DNA from: Fibrobacter succinogenes subsp. succinogenes S85
GTDB lineage: Bacteria; Fibrobacterota; Fibrobacteria; Fibrobacterales; Fibrobacteraceae
DNA length: 32,000 nt
NCBI RefSeq assembly: GCF_000146505.1
Contig: NC_017448.1
Span: forward strand, 450,001-482,000
Reading direction: 5' to 3'
The position numbers and the translations under genes are program-made. Every line of letters begins with the position of its first letter. Within the stretch, counting starts at the first letter, position 1. The notes beneath the pieces were generated by a model. That model worked only from the letters and a program-made list of their open reading frames with translations, ran no database searches and had not been told where the DNA came from. This document shows positions 6,341 to 32,000 of the stretch, one piece after another.

Positions 6341-9300
6341 TTACCTCGATATCAATAGCTTTTGTTTTTTGGTCCAAGTTTGAGTTTTGCTCTTCATTTT
6401 TGTGTCCGATGAGCTGTTCACTATTCTAGTCTTGCTACGGACAACATAGTGATACAAACCATTTGCGAGCAGACGTCCATAATTGTCACGTCCATCCCAT
6501 TGCGTTACACCGGATTTGGCATTCTTGATAACCTTGACAAGTCTGCCATGCTGGTTGTAAATAAAGATATTCACATCCGATTCAACACCGACTGCAAGAT
6601 TCTTGAAGTAGAACGTGGTACCCTTCTTGCCCATCGGATTCGGAACGTTAAACACGTCGGCAAGCCCGGCCTGCATCGCTTCCGTAATTTCGATATTCAA
6701 AATCTTTATTGACACATTGCCAAGGACATCCATCGCACGAACCTTGAACGTGTAATTGCCAGGCGGATAAGTTTCCGTCGTAAAGGACTTACGTACAACA
6801 GCTCGCTTGGAGGATTGTTCCAGGAATAGCGTCGGGTGATACGAATTTTCAAGGCCGAACATTTCAAACGTGATTCCTTCATCAGCCTGTTCGCGATAAT
6901 CCAAAGCCGTTTCGTCTTCAACGACTACCTGCAAGCATGCCGGAGTCAAAAGCTTGACAAACTGGTTATCGGCAAAAGAAGTTGACTCGTTTGCATTGCA
7001 CAGCTGGATCTTGATTGTCGGCGGAGCCTTGTCATTCAAGGAATCCGCATAATTCGAGATTCCGGTTATCTTGATGTTCTTTTCAAAGTATCGACCAACG
7101 GCAACATCATTCGAGGAATAGGCCCAGCCACGCAATTCAGCCAGTGAATCACCGATGTTCAACTTTTTCGGGGTCACAAATTCTGTTTCAAAACGTCCAC
7201 CGACAACAGGAACAACTTCGGAATAAATAAGCGGCCCATCGTACTTGACATCGGCATAATTTGACGTTGAAATCATGTCGAGGCGCTTGGTAAAGCGGCC
7301 TTCCCTAAGCGTCAAGGCGATATTTCCAGACGACATGCCAGATACCTTTCCAGACAATTTAATCTTTTCCAGAGCCTTGATCGAATCCAACGGAGAATCC
7401 ATCGAGACCTTCAATTCGGCAAGAGGCATGCGGATGACCGGTTCACCCATATAGACATAGTGTTCCGAGTTGTAGACGTTATTCGTATATGTCGGCACAC
7501 TCTTTGAATGCAGGAATACGTTATCCTTAGCCTGCATATAGGCAACACCAAGATAGTTGCCATCCTTGAGCAAAGCAGGGCCGATAAAGTTCTTTGCAAA
7601 GACTTCATTGGGTTTCGCATATGTTTCACGGGCAGCACCGACAGCGGCAATAGCACCCGCATTAGGCAAAAGCACAAAAGCTTCTGTCATCGATTTTGAA
7701 CCGCCCTCGTCAAAGCGGCCCACCGTGCATGAGAACGAGTTCAGCACCGTATAGCGTTTTTCATTCGAAAGCTTCGGGAGGTACGAAAGTTTCATCAACC
7801 CTTCAGATGCCCAGGCCACCTTGGAACCATGCCCGTAGAAGACAGTCATCAACGCACCCTGGTTCAACATATTCAAAAAGTCATTGGCGGCTTCCTGCTT
7901 CTGTTCGGCGGCATCGGCCTCGTAATTCAGGAGATAGACCTTCTTCATGTTCATGCGGAATCCCTGAGATTCTGCAGTCGTATCAATCAAGTTCGCAAGG
8001 TTTTCCTGATAAATAGTATGGTCCATCGGGTCTGCCGAACCAGCGTTCCTATCGTCATCGGCAGCAAGCAACAAGGTAGACTTCCATTCACCGTGGTCAA
8101 AGCGACCAATATAATCGTAGTCCTTGGCCTTGTCTATGTAATCCTCAAATTCCTGAACAGTTGTCACTGGCAAGCGTCCCAAAGCAAGGTCAACGTCATA
8201 CGTCTTGCCGCTACGGACAACTTCGCCAGAATCAAGAACCGCAAAGAAGTCTTCCGTTACAGAGGCTTCCTTTTCAAAGGGAGGTATGTAGTTTTCACCA
8301 ATATTCGCCTTGCCACGGTAATCGTAATTGCCACCGCCGGCAAGCAACACAAAACGCAAATCCGGGCAAACACTGCGAGCATAAGCGATATAGTTTCTAA
8401 TCGCAATCGGAGAAAGCGCACCACCCGTATAATGCCTATAAATATTTTCAGCAGAGACAACAGCAGTCACAAGCTGGCTTGCAGACTTTTCACTTGAACG
8501 GAACACAGCCAAAGACTCAGCCTGTGCAAGGAATACATCAGGCGTTATAATGAGGTACTCCGTCTTCGACGAAATCTGCGAGAGTTTCTGGACGGCATTT
8601 TTAGAAGGAGCGGCAACACCCTTCAGGCTCAGCGCTTTACGTCGATTGCCATTGTTGAACAGCAAATAGCGGACGTCCTCATTTGCGCCGATGCTGTCTA
8701 TAGCCTCGCCATCAGTAATCTTCAAAAGCCCAACAGGAGCGAAGTCCTTAAACTTCATCACGCGAAGATCAGAATCTGTCCCCACCGGAATGCGGATAAC
8801 GCCAGTTGCAAAGCCAGGCAAGAGCCATTCAGATGAATCAATGGAGACCTTAGCCGGCTCCCACTGGTACGCCACAGAATAACCGTCAAAGCGGTCATGC
8901 TGGTACGAATTATCGTAAATCGTCAGTTCAAATTTGTTACCGTCCGATTTCAAGTCACTTGTCGGAATGCCAAAATTACCGCCCGGCAAAATATCACCCG
9001 AAGCCCAGTAGAAAGAATCCGATTTCAATTTTGAATACGATATTCCGTTCACCTTCAAGTTAAAGACAATGGGATTTATACGCTTCTCGTACGTGCTATC
9101 CGAAAACATCATGCTGGCACTCTGCGAGCGAAGCGGGAAGAACGAGAGAGCGACAAAGCCCTTGCCACCGGAAACAAGTCCAGGCAACCGGGTCGTCGTC
9201 TTAAAATCCAGATCAGCGGAGGAAAGGGATAGCGTATCGCCAAATTCGCGCCACTTCCAAAAATATTCCTTACCGGTTGTCTTTTCCCAGTCAACGACTC

Positions 9301-10453
9301 TGCCGTAATAGCCGTCGCGCAGAAGTTCATCTTTTTCAGCACGAACATACCTAAGCCATTCGATGCTCTTGGCCGTAGACTTCGGCGGTTCAATCGTTTT
9401 TAAGCGAAGACCACTCCCCGTTTGCTTATAGCCCAAAATAAAGTGCTGGTAGAAGGAATAGGGCGAATAAGAATGGAAATATCCCATGTTCGTTTTAGGA
9501 ACATCCGGCACCTGAGTCGGTTCCGAATCCGTGCGTTTCCAGAACGCATTGCCGTAGCCGACAAAAAACAGAGAGTCGCCATCGTCAAAAATGCCATTGG
9601 AATTGCGGTCGTCAACTTTGATAGGCAGTTCAAAAAGCTGGTTCGGATTACGCAATTTTTCCCCCGGTCCCATATCAGGGAGTGTATCCGGCGATGCACC
9701 ATAAACGCAAACCTTTTCAACAGGAACGCCATGCAAAAGTGTATCTTCGCGACCCACCTTGCGGAGCGCCGTGCGAAGCATCTCGTAGCTGACCGCATAC
9801 ATGCCATCTTCGCTAAAAGTCGCGATGTTCTCGTCACCCACAACCAGTTCGACAAGTTGAGCGACATCATCAATTTCGGCACTGGCCGAGCGACGCAAAG
9901 ACTTACGTGATGCAGCAGAACCAAACTTAGCTGCCGACTTGGCATTCACCACCTGCATAAGCGCACGGGCGCCCGGATTCCTGCCACCCGACGTTGCAGC
10001 ACCAAAATCAACACTCAAGCGGAAGTTCTTGCGAAGTGCAATAGAACCGCCTTCCTTGACGTAAAGCGGGACAAACACATCGACCATCCACAAGTTGTCC
10101 TTGAAAAACGGACTAGAGACATCGATAGACTGAATCTTTGCCGGAATTGATTTACAGGGAGACGCTCCAAGCGAAACAAGCTTGCTATTCGTCACCGAGA
10201 CCGATGGTTTTACGTTAGACGGAAGCGCCAAACGGTAATGGCGAACAGGAACGTCGCCTTCATCCACATAAAAAGCGTTTTCGGGAGCAAAGCGCATCCC
10301 CAAGCCGTCTTCACAGGATCTCGTCGACGAATCCAGGACCTCGTCATCTAAGACAAATCGCTTATTGGAATCCTCTATGACAGAAGATGCCCAGCTAGAT
10401 ACAGTTGCACAGGCAACTAGAAGAATTTGAAATTTTTTGATGATAGAATTCAC
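6341..10453 (-). CDS. Peptidase C25 (gingipain-type) family protein with a T9SS-type C-terminal sorting domain; PorU-like architecture
   Basis: 1370 aa with a GTG start and signal peptide (MNSIIKKFQILLVACATVSSWA/SS). The central domain carries a catalytic-dyad context: FYGHGSKVAW (His875, nt 7829-7831) and NSFSCTVGRFDE (Cys909, nt 7727-7729). The C-terminal roughly 100 aa read VPNPMGKKGTTFYF...IYNQHGRLVKVI...WDGRDNYGRLLANGLYHYVV...KKQKLLISR, a FlgD-Ig/T9SS CTD pattern (nt about 6344-6652). Confidence 0.85.
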   Translation of the reverse strand: MNSIIKKFQILLVACATVSSWASSVIEDSNKRFVLDDEVLDSSTRSCEDGLGMRFAPENAFYVDEGDVPVRHYRLALPSNVKPSVSVTNSKLVSLGASPCKSIPAKIQSIDVSSPFFKDNLWMVDVFVPLYVKEGGSIALRKNFRLSVDFGAATSGGRNPGARALMQVVNAKSAAKFGSAASRKSLRRSASAEIDDVAQLVELVVGDENIATFSEDGMYAVSYEMLRTALRKVGREDTLLHGVPVEKVCVYGASPDTLPDMGPGEKLRNPNQLFELPIKVDDRNSNGIFDDGDSLFFVGYGNAFWKRTDSEPTQVPDVPKTNMGYFHSYSPYSFYQHFILGYKQTGSGLRLKTIEPPKSTAKSIEWLRYVRAEKDELLRDGYYGRVVDWEKTTGKEYFWKWREFGDTLSLSSADLDFKTTTRLPGLVSGGKGFVALSFFPLRSQSASMMFSDSTYEKRINPIVFNLKVNGISYSKLKSDSFYWASGDILPGGNFGIPTSDLKSDGNKFELTIYDNSYQHDRFDGYSVAYQWEPAKVSIDSSEWLLPGFATGVIRIPVGTDSDLRVMKFKDFAPVGLLKITDGEAIDSIGANEDVRYLLFNNGNRRKALSLKGVAAPSKNAVQKLSQISSKTEYLIITPDVFLAQAESLAVFRSSEKSASQLVTAVVSAENIYRHYTGGALSPIAIRNYIAYARSVCPDLRFVLLAGGGNYDYRGKANIGENYIPPFEKEASVTEDFFAVLDSGEVVRSGKTYDVDLALGRLPVTTVQEFEDYIDKAKDYDYIGRFDHGEWKSTLLLAADDDRNAGSADPMDHTIYQENLANLIDTTAESQGFRMNMKKVYLLNYEADAAEQKQEAANDFLNMLNQGALMTVFYGHGSKVAWASEGLMKLSYLPKLSNEKRYTVLNSFSCTVGRFDEGGSKSMTEAFVLLPNAGAIAAVGAARETYAKPNEVFAKNFIGPALLKDGNYLGVAYMQAKDNVFLHSKSVPTYTNNVYNSEHYVYMGEPVIRMPLAELKVSMDSPLDSIKALEKIKLSGKVSGMSSGNIALTLREGRFTKRLDMISTSNYADVKYDGPLIYSEVVPVVGGRFETEFVTPKKLNIGDSLAELRGWAYSSNDVAVGRYFEKNIKITGISNYADSLNDKAPPTIKIQLCNANESTSFADNQFVKLLTPACLQVVVEDETALDYREQADEGITFEMFGLENSYHPTLFLEQSSKRAVVRKSFTTETYPPGNYTFKVRAMDVLGNVSIKILNIEITEAMQAGLADVFNVPNPMGKKGTTFYFKNLAVGVESDVNIFIYNQHGRLVKVIKNAKSGVTQWDGRDNYGRLLANGLYHYVVRSKTRIVNSSSDTKMKSKTQTWTKKQKLLISR

Positions 10454-26555: not shown

Positions 26556-27209
26556 CTATTTCACATACAGAATCGTCGGGTTATCCTTATGGATGTCAAA
26601 ACGCGGCAAATTGATGTTATTTTCCGAGCAAAATGATTGCCAAAGTTCATCCATTCTTGATGTATTGAACGGCTTCGCAATCAAGTGAAACCCGTTTTTC
26701 GTCTGGATTTCTACAATATCATTTGCCGACTGAAAAGGTTCACACTTTTCAATCATTTCACGAACCGCCTGCTTATATGGAACAAATTCCGCATCTACAT
26801 CGACAATCCAGGTTTTTGATTTTCCCGCAGCATTTGCACGACCAGCAGCTCGTGCCACCAAATGAAGCGGCGGAGCAAACGTTTCACCAGAGCAGATTTC
26901 TTCGGTGATGTGCTTAAAAATGATCATCGAAATATCCTTGAACGTCCGCTTGTTCAAACGGATGTATGCCCGCACATTGAACACTTCGCAAATCGTCTTG
27001 ATTTCCTTTTCGACATCGTCAAAATGTGCTAACGACGAAATAAAGTAGTCCTTGATAGAGCGACTATGCATATTGCCGTGATACGCCGGATCTGGAACGC
27101 CTCCAATTTTTGGATCGTCACTTTGCCTACGGAGCAGTTGAACGTAATAACAATCGCCAGGACTTTCGAACTTGAGCATCGAACGGATAATTTTGAAGTT
27201 ATCAACCAT
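26556..27209 (-). CDS. Hypothetical protein (217 aa), translationally coupled to the HD gene
   Basis: ATG 27207-27209 overlaps the HD gene stop (TGA 27202-27204) by 8 nt. No family recognised. Acidic/His positions appear in the order WIVDVD (D137/D139), NGFHLI (H175), FDIHKD (D205). Confidence 0.7.
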   Translation of the reverse strand: MVDNFKIIRSMLKFESPGDCYYVQLLRRQSDDPKIGGVPDPAYHGNMHSRSIKDYFISSLAHFDDVEKEIKTICEVFNVRAYIRLNKRTFKDISMIIFKHITEEICSGETFAPPLHLVARAAGRANAAGKSKTWIVDVDAEFVPYKQAVREMIEKCEPFQSANDIVEIQTKNGFHLIAKPFNTSRMDELWQSFCSENNINLPRFDIHKDNPTILYVK

Positions 27210-27951
27210 TTGAACCTCCTATAGTTTTGATGGCGGCACGAATTAAACTTTCTTTGGAGAGGACTCCCCCATTGATTTGCATTTTATGGCAAAAAACGAG
27301 AGCATTTTCCACGCGAATATCATCCCACTTTTGCGAAGCAAAATCATCCGCTTCGACAATGGCGACAGGCATTTCATTTTCAAGACACTCTGCAACAATA
27401 GGGCGTTTCAAGATTTCTTCAAAGTCATCATGAGGCTTGCCCTCAGCGTCCAAAGTCGCTTTGCAATCGGCACAAGCAAGGTGTCGCAGCCGCCCGAACA
27501 ACGGATGCTTTACCAACTGCCAAATATCATACTTAGAACGCATCACCTTTAAATCCAAAGCTTTCATGTGATTGCAAATAAGCCAAAGAACCTGTTCACG
27601 GATTTTTCGGTCAAAATTCATCTTCACAAGCCATTCCAAAGCAATGCGAGCACCTTCAATTTCGTGCCCTTGCATATTCTTACCGTTGTTGCGTTGTAAA
27701 GCATCTTTCTTCCCTACGTCATGAAGCAAAGCAACAAGCACATCCATCCAATCATGTTCTTCAGCAACAACATTCTGTATCACAAGTTTCGTATGTTCCC
27801 AGACATCGCCTTCACTATGGAAATTCTTGTGTTCGCAACCAACCATATAGCGATCGATAAATTCAAAAAATTCATCCTTATGCAATTGGATTTCCGCAAT
27901 GGGATTGGACGAGGAGAGGATATTTTCTATTTGGCGAAAATTATTCTGCAT
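27202..27951 (-). CDS. HD-domain phosphohydrolase resembling the HD domain of class-II CCA-adding enzymes
   Basis: FHSEGDVWEHT...ALLHDVGK...GHEIEGA (nt 27709-27819) is the H...HD...H pattern, with the HxEGDVWxHT context typical of Cca-type HD domains. The ORF-track start at 27987 is TTG, so ATG 27951 (MQNNF) is used. No nucleotidyltransferase head domain is present. Confidence 0.8.
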   Translation of the reverse strand: MQNNFRQIENILSSSNPIAEIQLHKDEFFEFIDRYMVGCEHKNFHSEGDVWEHTKLVIQNVVAEEHDWMDVLVALLHDVGKKDALQRNNGKNMQGHEIEGARIALEWLVKMNFDRKIREQVLWLICNHMKALDLKVMRSKYDIWQLVKHPLFGRLRHLACADCKATLDAEGKPHDDFEEILKRPIVAECLENEMPVAIVEADDFASQKWDDIRVENALVFCHKMQINGGVLSKESLIRAAIKTIGGSNG

Positions 27952-28019
27952 AACAATCCATTCACAATCTAAAACAAACTGGTACAACGTTTATTTTCAA
28001 AAATTGAGTAATCAAGAAA

Positions 28020-29303
28020 TCACCATTCATCATATTCATTTGGAACATCCCAATGCGAGATATCTCCTGTGAATTTTGAATTTTTAAACATGTCTATATT
28101 ATATTCTAAGCTTGCAATATCCCATGATGACAAATCTCCGTCAAAACAAGAGCCACTGAACATTTCAACCATGTTGGTAACATTTGCAACATTCCACCGA
28201 GAAATATCTCCGTTGAATTTGGAATTGCTAAACATTCCGCTCATATCCGTCACATGAGAAACATTCCATGATGACAAATCTCCATCAAAGCAGGATCCGC
28301 TAAACATTTCTGCCATATTAGTGACGTTTCCGACATTCCACTGAGAAATGTCTCCAGTGAATTTTGAATCCTGGAACATTTTGCTCATGTCCGTCACATG
28401 AGAAACATCCCATGATGACAAATTTCCATCAAAGTAGGAACCGCAGAACATTTCGAACATATTTGTAACATTGGCAACATTCCACTGAGAAATGTCTCCG
28501 TCGAATTTAGATTTATAAAACATCCGCCTCATGTTTGTAACGCGAGAAACATTCCAATTAGAAATATCGCCATTAAAACAAGATCCACAAAACATGGCAT
28601 ACATGTTTTGAACATTGGATACATCCCAATTGGAGATTGATGTATTAAAGGTAGTGCCAGAAAACATACCACTCATATCCGTCACATGAGAAACATCCCA
28701 ATTGGAGATATCACCATTAAAAGGAGAACATGAAAACATCTCACTCATTTTTTTCACATTTGAGACATTCCATCGCGATAAATCATCGTTGAAAGCAGAG
28801 TCTTCAAACATATGACTCATATCTTCCACATTTGAAACATTCCAACAAGAAATGTCGCCTATGAATTGAGATTTGAAAAACATATAGCCCATGTCTTTCA
28901 CATTTGAGACATTCCAGTGAGAAATATCACCATTAAAGTCACATTTCCAAAACATTCCCCTCATATTCGTGACGTTAGATATATCCCAGTTGGAGATATT
29001 CCCGTTAAATGACGAATAAAGAAACATATCTTTCATATCGGTCACATGAGATACGTCCCAGTTAGAAATATCGGCATTAAAATCAGCTTCCCAAAACATA
29101 CCCCTCATGTTCGTCACTTTTGAAACATCCCACTGAGATATATCGCCTTTGAACGAAAGGTTCATAAAAAGATAACTCATATCCGTCACATTAGACACAT
29201 CAATAAAATTAAGGCTGCATTTATCACCTTCTTGATTGATGGTTTGGATGATAATATTTTGCAGTTCATGTTTATTGCGGACAATGATTTTAGCAGCCAT
29301 CAT
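28020..29303 (-). CDS. DUF285/BspA-like leucine-rich-repeat protein, no signal peptide
   Basis: 427 aa with AGGAG before ATGATG. It has 16 tandem 24-aa repeats of consensus (N/S)W(D/N)VS(N/H)VT(N/D)MxxMFxxSxF(N/D)GD(I/L)S. The N-terminus (MMAAKIIVRNKHELQNIIIQ) is hydrophilic. Confidence 0.85.
   Translation of the reverse strand: MMAAKIIVRNKHELQNIIIQTINQEGDKCSLNFIDVSNVTDMSYLFMNLSFKGDISQWDVSKVTNMRGMFWEADFNADISNWDVSHVTDMKDMFLYSSFNGNISNWDISNVTNMRGMFWKCDFNGDISHWNVSNVKDMGYMFFKSQFIGDISCWNVSNVEDMSHMFEDSAFNDDLSRWNVSNVKKMSEMFSCSPFNGDISNWDVSHVTDMSGMFSGTTFNTSISNWDVSNVQNMYAMFCGSCFNGDISNWNVSRVTNMRRMFYKSKFDGDISQWNVANVTNMFEMFCGSYFDGNLSSWDVSHVTDMSKMFQDSKFTGDISQWNVGNVTNMAEMFSGSCFDGDLSSWNVSHVTDMSGMFSNSKFNGDISRWNVANVTNMVEMFSGSCFDGDLSSWDIASLEYNIDMFKNSKFTGDISHWDVPNEYDEW
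28023..29213 (-). repeat. Intragenic tandem repeat, 72-nt unit x16, with a younger 144-nt super-repeat at the 3' end
   Basis: The string CCGTCACATG recurs at 28247, 28391 and 28679, offsets of 144 and 288 nt. Repeats 12-13 and 14-15 are about 83% identical at the protein level (40 of 48 residues). Confidence 0.9.
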
Positions 29304-29408
29304 TTACTCCTGATAACAGTCTCTTTAGATTTTTGATTAAAAATATAGATTTCGACAATGACATATTATGACATCTCATTTTATTAATTTTTAAGAAAAG
29401 GAGCCATT

Positions 29409-30725
29409 ATGATTGAACGCATACAAGATTTATCAGAGGTTATTGCGGGGCAAGGAAGTTACCCCCGTAAGCCATTTTTATCTTGCCAAAACATTTCGTA
29501 CGACGAACTCGTCGCTATTTTGGATGATGCCCCAGAATCGCATTCCGCTAATTTTATTTTTCAGCCTAAAAATTTGACCTTCGCCTTTCCGTACAATCGA
29601 GGCAAACAATGGCTCCGTGAAATCAAAGATATTTTACTATTGAATTCCGCAGAAGTCGGGCAAAGTCTTTTTCCTAAACTTTACCGTTTTGTCAAAGGCT
29701 CCGAAGTTAAAATCCGAGGAAAAATTTTTATCAAGACAAAATGCGCAAACCGTTTTTCTCTCGAGGAATTGACAGAAATATCACGCAAGATTTTAAGCAA
29801 CTATATCATTCTCCCACAAAAATTCTGTTCGCTAGATATTAGTTGTAAAAGAAATGAAGATATAACCGTCGAAATCGGCAGAATACAGATTCCAAATTAT
29901 TCGGGGATTGGTTTCTACATTCATTTTAGTCTTTCTTGTCAATTACACCGAGTTCAAACAGCTAAACCTTTAGAATATTTTTCAGAAATGCACGAAATCC
30001 GCATAGGAGGCTTTGGTCACAATACTTGCGGTAGAAACGGCATTTTCTTTGTACTTGTACAACTGTTTGAATACGGGAACACGCTTACAGAGATTCCAAA
30101 AGACATTGAAAATTCATTACTCGGATCTGAAAATCCTTGCGAAAACTATTGGAGTAAATTTCACAAGCAATATATTGCTACAGATTTTTTACCTGCATTT
30201 ATAAAACAAAAATCAAAGATTTTTTCAGCAAGACAATCAAACGAAACAAGTACTTCTGGAGATTTCATTTACCATGACAAATTCGGCTATGGTCAAATTC
30301 TAAAGAAATACGAAGAAAAAGGAGATAAAAGAATTGATGTTCTTTTCAGCGACACTATTACTAGAACATTAATCTTGAAATATGCTAACGAACATCTCAA
30401 ATTCACAACCAATCAATACCATAATCAAGAATTCAATGAAGATGTTCACATTTCATCAGAAAATCCAATTTATGTGAATTGCACATTCAACAACGGCGTT
30501 TTTATTGAAGGAAATGTATACCCTATTTTTATATCTTGCTCATTTTATGGTTATGACAGCGCAGGCGTGCAACTTTTAAATGGTTCTCAAGGATTTTTTT
30601 ACAATTGCAGGTTCAACCATACATTCCCCTATATTTCGCCAAATATGAAAAATTGTTCTTTCGAACCTAACGCAACGAAAGATGAATTTAGAATCGGTGG
30701 ATGCAATATAGACACCAACAAATAA
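29409..30725 (+). CDS. Hypothetical multidomain protein: unknown N-terminal domain, UvrD/PcrA-type Tudor-like motif, beta-helix-like C-terminus
   Basis: 438 aa with AAAAGGAG before the ATG; very AT-rich. Residues 284-332 (nt 30258-30404) read GDFIYHDKFGYGQILKKYEEKGDKRIDVLFSDTITRTLILKYANEHLKF. This matches the GDxVxHxxFGxGxV...VxF...KxL...A.L pattern of the UvrD/PcrA/Rep C-terminal domain. The C-terminus has four (N/S)Cx F repeats (NCTF, SCSF, NCRF, NCSF; nt 30477-30662). Confidence 0.75.
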   Translation: MIERIQDLSEVIAGQGSYPRKPFLSCQNISYDELVAILDDAPESHSANFIFQPKNLTFAFPYNRGKQWLREIKDILLLNSAEVGQSLFPKLYRFVKGSEVKIRGKIFIKTKCANRFSLEELTEISRKILSNYIILPQKFCSLDISCKRNEDITVEIGRIQIPNYSGIGFYIHFSLSCQLHRVQTAKPLEYFSEMHEIRIGGFGHNTCGRNGIFFVLVQLFEYGNTLTEIPKDIENSLLGSENPCENYWSKFHKQYIATDFLPAFIKQKSKIFSARQSNETSTSGDFIYHDKFGYGQILKKYEEKGDKRIDVLFSDTITRTLILKYANEHLKFTTNQYHNQEFNEDVHISSENPIYVNCTFNNGVFIEGNVYPIFISCSFYGYDSAGVQLLNGSQGFFYNCRFNHTFPYISPNMKNCSFEPNATKDEFRIGGCNIDTNK

Positions 30726-30838: not shown

Positions 30839-31120
30839 ATGGCACAGGCAACAGTTTCTGCACGAATCGACAGCAAAGACAAAGAACGTTTTGACGAATT
30901 CTGCAATAACGTTGGTTTGTCCGCATCCGCAGCCATCAACATGTTCATCAAGAGCGTCATCAATGAACATCGCATTCCCTTTGAAGTCCGCGAACCCATA
31001 GCCCGTTACAACGCAAAAGCAAATGACATCGAGGCCCTCAAAAAAGGCATCGAACAGCTCAATGCCGGGAAAGGTATTGTGAAAACACTAGAAGAACTAG
31101 AGGCAATGGAAAATGGCTAA
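30839..31120 (+). CDS. RelB/DinJ-family type II antitoxin (ribbon-helix-helix)
   Basis: MAQATVSARIDSKDKERFDEFCNNVGLSASAAINMFIKSVINEHRIPFEV aligns with the DinJ N-terminal RHH. AAAGGAG precedes the ATG, and the gene overlaps the toxin gene by 8 nt. Confidence 0.85.
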   Translation: MAQATVSARIDSKDKERFDEFCNNVGLSASAAINMFIKSVINEHRIPFEVREPIARYNAKANDIEALKKGIEQLNAGKGIVKTLEELEAMENG

Positions 31121-31379
31121 AATCGCATTTTCCGAACAAGCGTGGCAAGAATATCTCTACTGGCAACTACAAGATAAGAAAACACTCAAAAGAGTCAACC
31201 AACTGCTTAAAGACATCGAGCGAAACCATTTCGAAGGCTTAGGCAAGCCTGAAGCATTGAAAGGAAACCTCAGCGGATTTTGGAGTCGACGAATTGACGA
31301 TGGCAATCGGCTAATCTACAGAATTAATGGTGAATTTATCGACATTCTTTCTTGCAAAGGTCACTACGAAAACGTTTAG
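31113..31379 (+). CDS. yoeB: YoeB/Txe-family type II toxin (ribosome-dependent mRNA interferase)
   Basis: IAFSEQAWQEYLYWQLQDKKTLKRVNQLLKDIERNHFEGLGKPEALKGNLSGFWSRRIDDGNRLIYR...CKGHYE is near-collinear with E. coli YoeB. The Glu, Arg and C-terminal His-Tyr catalytic positions are present. Confidence 0.92.
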   Translation: MAKIAFSEQAWQEYLYWQLQDKKTLKRVNQLLKDIERNHFEGLGKPEALKGNLSGFWSRRIDDGNRLIYRINGEFIDILSCKGHYENV

Positions 31380-31436: not shown

Positions 31437-32000
31437 TTAAGCTTCTTCGGAGAGTTCCGGAGCCTTCTTGATCACGTTGCGGCGACCATAGCGGACCTTG
31501 GACGGATCAAAAGCGGTTTCTGCAGCAGCTTCTGCCGGGGCTTCAGCAACCGGAGCGACCGGGGCAGCTTCGACAGCCGGAGCGGCCGGAGTTTCAACCG
31601 GAATGCGCGGAGCGAGCGGGCGACGAGCTTCGGCGACCGGAGCTTCAGCAGCCGGTGCAACCGGAGCGGCCTGTTCTGCAGCAGCAACAGGAGCTTCAGC
31701 GTTAGCTTCACGATGCGGGCGTTCCGGGCGGCGTTCGCGGCGCGGGCCACGTTCCGGACGCTGTTGTTGTTCATTGCGATCACGCGTTGCAGGGGCATGA
31801 GCCTGAGCCTGCTGCTGATTGCGGTTGTCCTTATTATTGTTGTTCGGACGTTCCTTGTTCTGGCGATTTTCCTTATTGTTGCCACCACGCTGAGCCATTT
31901 CCTGTGCGCTGATCGGGCGACGGGCGGACGGCTTCAAGTTCATGTCCGGGGTGAGCTTCTTGAAAATCGGGGTACGAAGCATCGTGAGAAGCTTATTAAC
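31437..32000 (-). CDS. 3' part of a gene continuing beyond the window; low-complexity basic and Ala/Pro/Glu-rich C-terminal tail
   Basis: The frame stays open upstream of the track's Met (31983-32000 encodes VNKLLT). The tail is rich in R/N/Q/E (NNKENRQNKERPNNNNKDNRNQQQ; RPERGPRRERRPERPHRE) and in (A/E)APVA repeats. Such tails occur on RNA-binding proteins and helicases, but the family cannot be determined from this fragment. Confidence 0.55.
   Translation of the reverse strand, partial: VNKLLTMLRTPIFKKLTPDMNLKPSARRPISAQEMAQRGGNNKENRQNKERPNNNNKDNRNQQQAQAHAPATRDRNEQQQRPERGPRRERRPERPHREANAEAPVAAAEQAAPVAPAAEAPVAEARRPLAPRIPVETPAAPAVEAAPVAPVAEAPAEAAAETAFDPSKVRYGRRNVIKKAPELSEEA

Follow-up and report, generated by a model that had tools for sequence, protein, structure and literature searches.

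What does the docking module of a repair helicase do on a protein that is not a helicase? This question is raised by a gene in a 32,000-nucleotide (nt) stretch of the chromosome of Fibrobacter succinogenes subsp. succinogenes S85 (NC_017448.1, positions 450,001 to 482,000), which is referred to as the window and numbered from its first nucleotide. The Tudor domain of PcrA and UvrD is the handle of these repair helicases on RNA polymerase (RNAP) and on UvrB. In the 438-amino-acid (aa) product of the gene, hereafter the target, a domain that is very likely of this type lies between an orphan N-terminal domain and a right-handed beta-helix. The target is a cytoplasmic, Fibrobacter-specific three-module protein under purifying selection, and its architecture (orphan N-terminal domain, linker, Tudor domain and beta-helix), taken alone, is highly probable. 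It may dock onto the transcription or repair machinery in the manner of PcrA and UvrD, as weighed below. The gene and its modules are located as follows.

29409..30725, plus strand: target gene, 438 aa, ATG start, stop codon included, encoding a three-module protein (open reading frame (ORF) list and homologues)
29398..29403, plus strand: strong Shine-Dalgarno sequence AAGGAG, 5 nt before the target ATG (read from the sequence)
29409..30233, plus strand: orphan N-terminal alpha/beta domain, aa 1-275, the last ~40 aa variable and running into the linker (AlphaFold2 (AF2) model mb0f519dadcdb)
30258..30404, plus strand: probable PcrA/UvrD-type Tudor domain, aa 284-332 (Pfam, PDB profile, hhalign, Foldseek)
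30411..30722, plus strand: right-handed beta-helix of the PF13229 type spanning aa 335-438; four (N/S)CxF coils are followed by a conserved C-terminal cap (Pfam, profile, AF2)
30591..30611, plus strand: junction of an in-frame deletion of 387 nt (129 codons) at the direct repeat ATTTTTT(C/A)CAA(C/T)TG (DNA comparison with locus L001)

A probable PcrA/UvrD-type Tudor domain without a helicase

The original prediction, made from the sequence alone, had placed a UvrD/PcrA-type Tudor domain at residues 284-332 of a protein devoid of helicase motifs, and both statements were borne out. Pfam family PF21196 (PcrA_UvrD_tudor), whose gathering score is 23.9 bits, matched the whole target at aa 284-326 with 16.0 bits (E=0.011) and the isolated Tudor segment with 20.5 bits (E=4.5e-4). 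The same family was matched by all 11 distinct segments of the target family (best E=1.3e-4), while other families were matched inconsistently, and the NCBIfam models of UvrD and PcrA covered the target through their last ~55 positions only. When a profile of the family segment was compared with 177,635 PDB sequences, the top four matches were 7egs_B, 6yi2_A, 7egt_B and 4c2t_A (best E=7.6e-4). 7egs_B and 6yi2_A are the isolated C-terminal domain (CTD) of Escherichia coli UvrD (E about 8e-4) and were followed by UvrD of Thermus thermophilus and Deinococcus radiodurans, with the Tudor domains of PcrA and UvrD1 ranking lower (E=0.95 for the PcrA CTD, 5dma_A). Alignment of the family segment with four helicase Tudor domains (E. 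coli, Geobacillus stearothermophilus, D. radiodurans and T. thermophilus) in hhalign gave a significant match over 45 columns (Prob 96.8%, E=2.6e-10).

Structure prediction led to the same family. The first full-length AF2 model had a mean predicted local distance difference test (pLDDT) value of 56 and an unusable N-terminal domain, and its Tudor and beta-helix portions alone were used; the Tudor region (aa 286-338, pLDDT 60-77) forms strands. A Foldseek search of this model against the whole PDB returned 7egs_B, 6yi2, 5dma and 9dqs, the Tudor domains of UvrD, PcrA and UvrD1, at ranks 1-4 with a probability of 1.0 each. The crystal structures 7egs_B, 5dma and 9dqs superimposed with target-normalised template modelling (TM) scores of 0.73-0.76 and a root-mean-square deviation (rmsd) of 2.3-2.8 A, and the nuclear magnetic resonance model 6yi2 with a TM score of 0.51 and an rmsd of 7.4 A. 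The next high-probability match of domain size, at rank 11, was the RNAP-interaction domain of CarD. Residues 284-332 are thus modelled as a five-stranded Tudor/SH3-like barrel, preceded, as in the helicases, by a variable linker of low confidence (aa 276-283). Given the agreement between PF21196 in all segments, the PDB profile, hhalign and Foldseek, the assignment was accepted as highly probable.

Closer examination of the alignment revealed that the positions on which helicase binding depends are kept. Binding or remodelling of RNAP requires H681, W684, K712 and L714 of G. stearothermophilus PcrA as well as K708 of E. coli UvrD (Sanders et al., PMC5397179). In the target, H289, F292, R319 and L321 are aligned to the four PcrA residues, UvrD K708 falling on R319, and the aromatic-cage residue F705 of PcrA corresponds to F313. 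All five target residues (H289, F292, F313, R319 and L321) are invariant across the family. The replacements of lysine by arginine and of tryptophan by phenylalanine are conservative, and E. coli UvrD likewise carries phenylalanine at the tryptophan position. Helicase, AAA and P-loop families were without a match in the target at E up to 10 in Pfam and NCBIfam; judged by its sequence, the target is not a helicase. The DUF3553 hidden Markov model (HMM) was absent from the Pfam matches of the target (E up to 10) and of the 11 segments (E up to 1).

The N-terminal domain

The original prediction had described the first ~280 aa as lacking a recognisable family, and this description still applies. 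Pfam returned no match for the domain at E up to 10, either in the target or in the 10 aligned family members, the profile of the domain found no match among PDB sequences, and nothing significant for it emerged when the whole target was compared with NCBIfam, PHROGs and PADLOC. An AF2 model of aa 1-275, based on a 10-sequence alignment, was confident (pLDDT 80.5, predicted TM score 0.77) and mixed alpha/beta. Compared with the PDB by Foldseek, this model reached at best E=0.16 with a probability of 0.13, and with BFVD at best E=0.2, neither being significant. Small alpha/beta folds resembling Alba, Rpp20, SpoVS, L23 or Cas6 recurred very weakly (probability <=0.13) and were not used. Because a confident model is left without a structural neighbour in both collections, the domain is a candidate new fold.

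D7, N63, T110 and K138 are the only polar residues of the domain that stay strictly invariant when the most divergent members are included. Its invariant residues are mostly hydrophobic or structural, and neither C140 nor H204 is among them. This scarcity of invariant polar residues weakly suggests a binding or scaffold domain rather than a classical enzyme.

The beta-helix and a natural deletion allele

The C-terminal module was matched by PF13229 (Beta_helix) at aa 349-418 (20.5 bits, E=3.9e-4; gathering score 25.9 bits). Homologues of 566-578 aa carry a precomputed PF13229 match, which is marked 'weak' for some and unmarked for P0014 and P0015, and the family profile matched hundreds of PF13229 proteins (best E=4e-61). 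The pLDDT of the AF2 model was 70-85 in this region. The original prediction had proposed a short right-handed beta-helix from four (N/S)CxF repeats at nt 30477-30662; the repeats lie exactly there (aa 357-360, 376-379, 399-402 and 415-418), and the beta-helix is supported, while its shortness turned out to be the product of a deletion, the full-length form having nine coils.

Most homologues of the target are 566-571 aa long, and the target is without 129 residues inside the beta-helix. In the full-length gene of L001 the direct repeat occurs at nt 1187 and 1573, and the 387 nt between its copies are gone in the window. Reading frame and coil register are both preserved across the junction: coil 3 (NCHM) continues into coil 8 (NCRF), and four of the nine coils remain, together with the C-terminal cap. 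The target therefore represents an in-frame deletion allele, of natural origin, within a family of 567-aa proteins. Because P0017/18/19 (73-78% identical) carry the same deletion on another N-terminal background, the allele must have been maintained and have recombined, and it is no lesion peculiar to this copy. Other shortened or rearranged members are P0021 (410 aa), P0023 (374 aa) and P0025 (458 aa).

By its sequence, the beta-helix is a module that is mobile within Fibrobacter. Stand-alone beta-helix proteins (P0030, P0034 and P0035) start precisely at the end of the Tudor domain, and P0027 and P0031 (30% identical) consist of the N-terminal and Tudor domains without the beta-helix. In L024 (552 aa) and L030 (556 aa), the Cys-rich target-type beta-helix is fused to an HD domain. 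P0033 (L015, 182-1429) fuses it, C-terminal cap included, to DUF285 repeats and is followed by a gene combining Fib_succ_major with DUF285. The distant 374-aa member of L014 (570-1694, plus strand) has the N-terminal and Tudor domains, no beta-helix, and a tail resembling the N-terminus of the RelB/DinJ antitoxin (ILEELDIPISDAIELFYKKIIEHRCVPL); it may have been fused to a downstream relB through a deletion. A beta-helix is connected with the transcription machinery in a further unusual way in the 802-aa P0042, one of the HMMER beta-helix matches, in which pectinesterase-like and PF13229 repeats are followed by a C-terminal RNAP alpha-subunit CTD (PF03118).

Reality of the gene and distribution of the family

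The ORF had been given as 29409-30725 with 438 aa, as the most AT-rich gene of the window and as divergent from a DUF285 gene, and each of these points proved exact. With a guanine-plus-cytosine (GC) content of 35.1%, the target is the lowest of the 28 ORFs measured (DUF285 gene 0.365, chromosomal genes 0.45-0.60), and a 105-nt spacer separates it from the DUF285 gene. The ratio of nonsynonymous to synonymous substitution rates (dN/dS, Nei-Gojobori) was 0.15-0.18 overall in comparison with four homologues, and the reading frame is therefore under purifying selection. The dS between the target and its L001 homologue (8001-9704) was 0.31 for aa 1-175, ~0 for aa 176-332 and 0.51 for aa 333-395. 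This mosaic along the gene indicates recent recombination between alleles within it. No signal-peptide-like hydrophobic stretch was seen in the N-terminal sequence when read by eye, and a promoter and terminator scan yielded no more sites than shuffled sequence.

The family is restricted to Fibrobacter. When 5.8 billion proteins were searched, 26 homologous clusters emerged, and a second, word-seeded profile search brought the number to 30 without revealing a new family; all of the clusters derive from metagenomes or metagenome-assembled genomes (MAGs). In an exhaustive HMMER search of 1.84 billion representatives, the core of N-terminal and Tudor domains formed ~7 clusters at 50% identity among the best 150 of 482 matches, a list dominated by generic beta-helix proteins in which matches to the N-terminal domain at E 1e-9 to 1e-3 may exist beyond the best 150. 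Homologues down to 30% identity retain this core. Within 185,579 species-representative genomes, matches were limited to four contigs, all from Fibrobacter (F. succinogenes and Fibrobacter sp. rumen or gut MAGs). The description of the target as an orphan was thus upheld, with no full-length homologue in any characterised family. The absence of relatives from IMG/VR viral contigs, GenBank phages and PLSDB plasmids speaks against the suggestion of a phage-derived protein, and the best PHROGs match had E=0.21.

Genomic context

The target lies in a low-GC island (~26.5-31.4 kb, 35-46% GC) of a chromosome of ~50% GC, surrounded by ordinary chromosomal genes (BipA, RpiA, MMPL, a GGDEF protein and a type IX secretion C25 peptidase). 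The other genes of the island considered here are the following.

26556..27209, minus strand: 217-aa protein (p217) of phage family phrog_14949, overlapping the HD gene by 8 nt (PHROG E=1.8e-30)
27202..27987, minus strand: HD phosphohydrolase, 261 aa, CCA-enzyme-type HD (Pfam HD, NCBIfam CCA-enzyme HD region)
28020..29303, minus strand: DUF285/PARCEL-repeat protein, 427 aa, beyond the 105-nt spacer; part of the context (Pfam DUF285 E=1e-158, NCBIfam PARCEL)
30839..31379, plus strand: intact RelB/YoeB toxin-antitoxin pair ending the low-GC island (RelB E=4e-14, YoeB E=4e-34)

Close relatives (>=77% identity) share the site seen in the window, with Band_7, p217, HD, DUF285 or beta-helix-HD, target and RelB(/YoeB) genes. 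In the syntenic loci L001/L002, YoeB is reduced to its first ~22 codons. Directly after the island, a 181-aa ORF (31437-31982, minus strand) is rich in Pro, Ala, Glu, Arg and Asn, has 60.6% GC and no Pfam match, and its counterparts in L001/L002 are 181-209 aa long. The DUF285/PARCEL-repeat protein has no obvious signal peptide.

The pair formed by p217 and the HD protein (26556-27987, minus strand) looks like a phage-type tRNA 3'-end repair module. p217 carries the motifs WIVDVD and NGFHLI. Homologues are encoded by Cellulophaga and Tenacibaculum phages and by Prevotella Lak phages, and in phi17:2, a Cellulophaga phage, the corresponding gene is located immediately upstream of an annotated tRNA nucleotidyltransferase. 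The HD protein of the window shares 54% identity with the C-terminal half of the 552-aa beta-helix-HD protein of L024. An HD gene stands beside the target in the window, L001/L002, L011, L014, L024/25 and L030/31.

At other loci, the following arrangements were observed.

L024: RhuM, beta-helix-HD, target, 109-aa membrane protein, ~810-aa NPPY methyltransferase-like protein
L017-20 and L027-29: YhcG (PDC-S02 of PADLOC), target, ~810-aa protein, with RhuM in L017-19
L032: DUF285, target, RelB, two genes, then AbiQ/ToxN
L005-10: topoisomerase IV genes, target, SEC-C protein
L021-23: topoisomerase IV genes, target, one small ORF, then a HigA-type gene
L014 (target ~50% identical): target, p217-like gene, RlaP nucleotidyltransferase, HD, split beta-helix

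The target thus recurs in variable, defence-island-like neighbourhoods. The PADLOC-DB v2 matches among the neighbours (PDC-S02, AbiQ and MTase_II) were all at loci other than the window, and phage structural genes were not found near the target. The ~810-aa protein (L024 9079-11520, minus strand) has a LINPPYGE motif, no Pfam family and a weak PADLOC match to type II methyltransferases, and lies convergently downstream of the target in four locus types (L024, L012/13, L017-20 and L026-29). The 109-aa membrane protein recurs as well (L024 8745-9074 and L014 5048-5377).

An obligate two-gene system of HD protein and target was considered and rejected, since the HD gene accompanies the target in five locus types and is absent from others, and HD homologues occur without a target. 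The latter, in L034-L038, are divergent from NAD-salvage genes (NAPRTase, NMNAT-Nudix, isochorismatase/nicotinamidase and NAD synthase), with a PolyA_pol (CCA enzyme) gene, LemA and Band_7/flotillin upstream.

Docking hypothesis and alternative explanations

The Tudor domain of PcrA and UvrD binds a TGE-tipped beta-hairpin that is present in RpoB and UvrB, and a docking model sets the critical lysine against the glutamate of the hairpin (PMC8318588); 7EGS is a complex of the UvrD CTD with the RNAP lobe. As the RNAP-contact residues are kept in the target, docking at the same site through R319 is the most economical hypothesis. The original prediction had suggested that an activity might be tethered to RNAP, in phage takeover or in defence; the invariance of the four residues aligned to those that PcrA requires, and the defence-type genes around the target at several unrelated loci, speak for such a tether. 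The Tudor domain would dock like that of PcrA/UvrD onto the TGE hairpin of the RNAP beta subunit or onto its UvrB equivalent, with R319 in place of the critical lysine; because the hairpin is found in both proteins, RNAP is not the sole candidate. Through such docking, complexes engaged in transcription or repair would receive the N-terminal domain and the beta-helix, or UvrD/PcrA would face a competitor for the site. Low-GC variable islands, defence-type neighbours and the fusions of the beta-helix to HD or DUF285 make an accessory role in conflict the most likely one, and the target would then assist a conflict module peculiar to the lineage, for defence or addiction, and would not be a housekeeping repair factor. 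We regard the statement as a whole, docking onto the RNAP beta subunit or UvrB through the Tudor domain in a conflict-related accessory role, as a real possibility with slightly less than an even chance of being right. A docking partner encoded in cis was considered and dropped: six-frame translations of the window and of nine related loci contained no recurrent match to the helicase-interaction motif [VIL]-D-x-x-T-G-E-[VIL]-[VILT] or to relaxed forms of it.

A more specific proposal, which we hold to be unlikely, is a Fibrobacter-specific conflict system in which the shared Cys-rich beta-helix would serve as sensing or assembly module for interchangeable heads, these being the orphan fold with the UvrD-type Tudor domain, a tRNA-repair-type HD phosphohydrolase, or DUF285 repeats. 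The target would be the subunit docking onto RNAP or UvrB, with its Tudor head linking the system to nucleotide-excision repair or to stalled transcription, and its N-terminal domain would represent a new fold with a new activity.

Several observations weigh against docking in a conflict module. The critical lysine of PcrA is an invariant arginine in the target family, and some bacterial RpoB proteins are without the TGE motif (PMC8318588). PADLOC-DB v2 at E up to 1 gave no match for the window protein, P0006 or P0024, nor for the beta-helix-HD protein. No gene is strictly co-conserved with the target; the loci of P0024 and P0025 have no HD, methyltransferase-like or PADLOC-recognised defence neighbour, and the HD homologues of L034-L038, which are distant (42-46% identity), occur without it. 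Finally, the deletion may impair the function of the window allele.

One alternative accepts the Tudor domain and changes its partner, which could be UvrB only, another TGE-hairpin protein, a nucleic acid or a partner encoded in the island such as the beta-helix-HD protein, making the target a scaffold unrelated to transcription. The PcrA Tudor domain does bind UvrB, YxaL and YwhK besides RpoB through one motif (PMC8318588), the change from lysine to arginine could alter specificity, and beta-helix-HD and p217 genes recur beside the target even at the distant L014. Since neither the neighbouring genes nor the target itself show a recurrent TGE-type motif, no neighbour is strictly conserved, and the residues aligned to the RNAP contacts are invariant, we consider a different partner rather unlikely. 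Convergence or chance as the source of the resemblance between aa 284-332 and the helicase domain, the segment being a generic SH3-like barrel that shares neither ancestry nor function with it, is highly improbable. The domain is short (~48 aa), AF2 confidence in the full-length model is just 60-77, and no family member is reported at or above the PF21196 gathering score (20.5 vs 23.9 bits), every single-sequence Pfam score lying under the curated cut-off. Nevertheless, the Pfam HMM, the PDB-sequence profile, hhalign and Foldseek all place the same family at the top, and the invariant positions of the target family are the functional positions of the helicases.

That the window gene is a decaying remnant inactivated by the 129-aa deletion would fit the length of most homologues and the further truncated or rearranged members (P0021, P0023, P0025 and the L014 protein with the RelB-like tail). 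It is nonetheless quite improbable, as the deletion joins coil to coil in frame and in register, the same allele is carried by P0017/18/19, dN/dS is 0.10-0.15 in the flanking segments, and the Shine-Dalgarno sequence and C-terminal cap are intact. The target might also be a structural or surface protein left by a prophage, such as a tailspike or adhesin-like beta-helix, in line with the weak resemblance of its beta-helix to tailspike 4ru5 (E=1.6), the phage family of the neighbouring p217 and the low GC of the island. Neither relatives in IMG/VR, GenBank phages or plasmids nor phage structural genes nearby nor a signal-peptide-like stretch were found, and the Tudor and N-terminal domains are not features of tailspikes, which leaves this origin exceedingly unlikely.

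Significance

Fibrobacter is a major cellulose degrader of the rumen, and to our knowledge almost no defence systems have been characterised in it. A Tudor domain with its contact residues kept on a protein other than a helicase suggests that the docking site may serve further proteins, whether for the delivery of an activity or for blocking the helicase. Should binding be confirmed, the TGE hairpin would have a natural competitor or adaptor in the target, which would also offer a tool for the study of transcription-repair coupling and an entry point to the biology of the Fibrobacter accessory genome. If it is not, the target would be one more lineage-restricted hypothetical protein.

Comparison with known systems

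The closest known counterparts of the target are the Tudor domains of PcrA, UvrD and UvrD1 (PF21196; 5DMA, 6YI2, 7EGS and 9DQS), with which it shares a predicted five-stranded barrel, a preceding flexible linker and the signature H-x-x-(F/W)-G-x-G ... (I/V)-x-F ... (K/R)-x-L-x-x-K-(Y/F)-A. In its aligned sequence the RNAP-binding residues appear kept or conservatively replaced. In contrast to the helicase domains, that of the target is internal rather than C-terminal, lacks a helicase/ATPase core, carries an invariant arginine for the lysine and scores below the PF21196 cut-off. The RNAP-interacting Tudor domains of CarD and Mfd (TRCF; PF02559) have a similar fold and matched weakly (Pfam E=0.077; Foldseek 4kbm_B E=0.13, probability 1.0), but their sequence signature is different and they are clearly more distant from the target than the UvrD/PcrA type. 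CarD and Mfd bind the beta1 lobe by beta-sheet extension and not the TGE hairpin.

The C-terminal module is of the same type as the PbH1/PF13229 beta-helix proteins, which include multidomain proteins linked to kinases or caspases, with coils of ~16-32 residues. Compared with these, the target module is cytoplasmic, Cys-rich and of the (N/S)CxF type, is joined to a Tudor domain and has four coils in the window allele; a carbohydrate-active or NosD-like function is not indicated for it. Nearer relatives of the module are the Fibrobacter beta-helix-HD and beta-helix-DUF285 proteins (P0032/P0033 against the family profile, E 1e-36 to 1e-39; the L024 protein by BLASTP, E=1e-7). Often adjoining the target and divergent to it, these proteins share its islands, are themselves uncharacterised, and carry HD or DUF285 in place of the N-terminal and Tudor domains.

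The combination of orphan fold, Tudor domain and beta-helix, which the original prediction had not recognised as a known one, is undescribed as far as our searches show and represents a new architecture around a known docking module. A PcrA/UvrD-like Tudor domain on a non-helicase is known from the mycobacterial Y-family polymerase DinX, in which a DUF3553 domain is surrounded by disordered linkers and docking onto RNAP has been proposed (PMC6511836). DinX carries a known DNA polymerase domain, whereas in the target the Tudor domain is partnered with an orphan fold and a beta-helix. Given this precedent, a UvrD-type Tudor domain outside the helicases is not new in principle, but the architecture of the target is.

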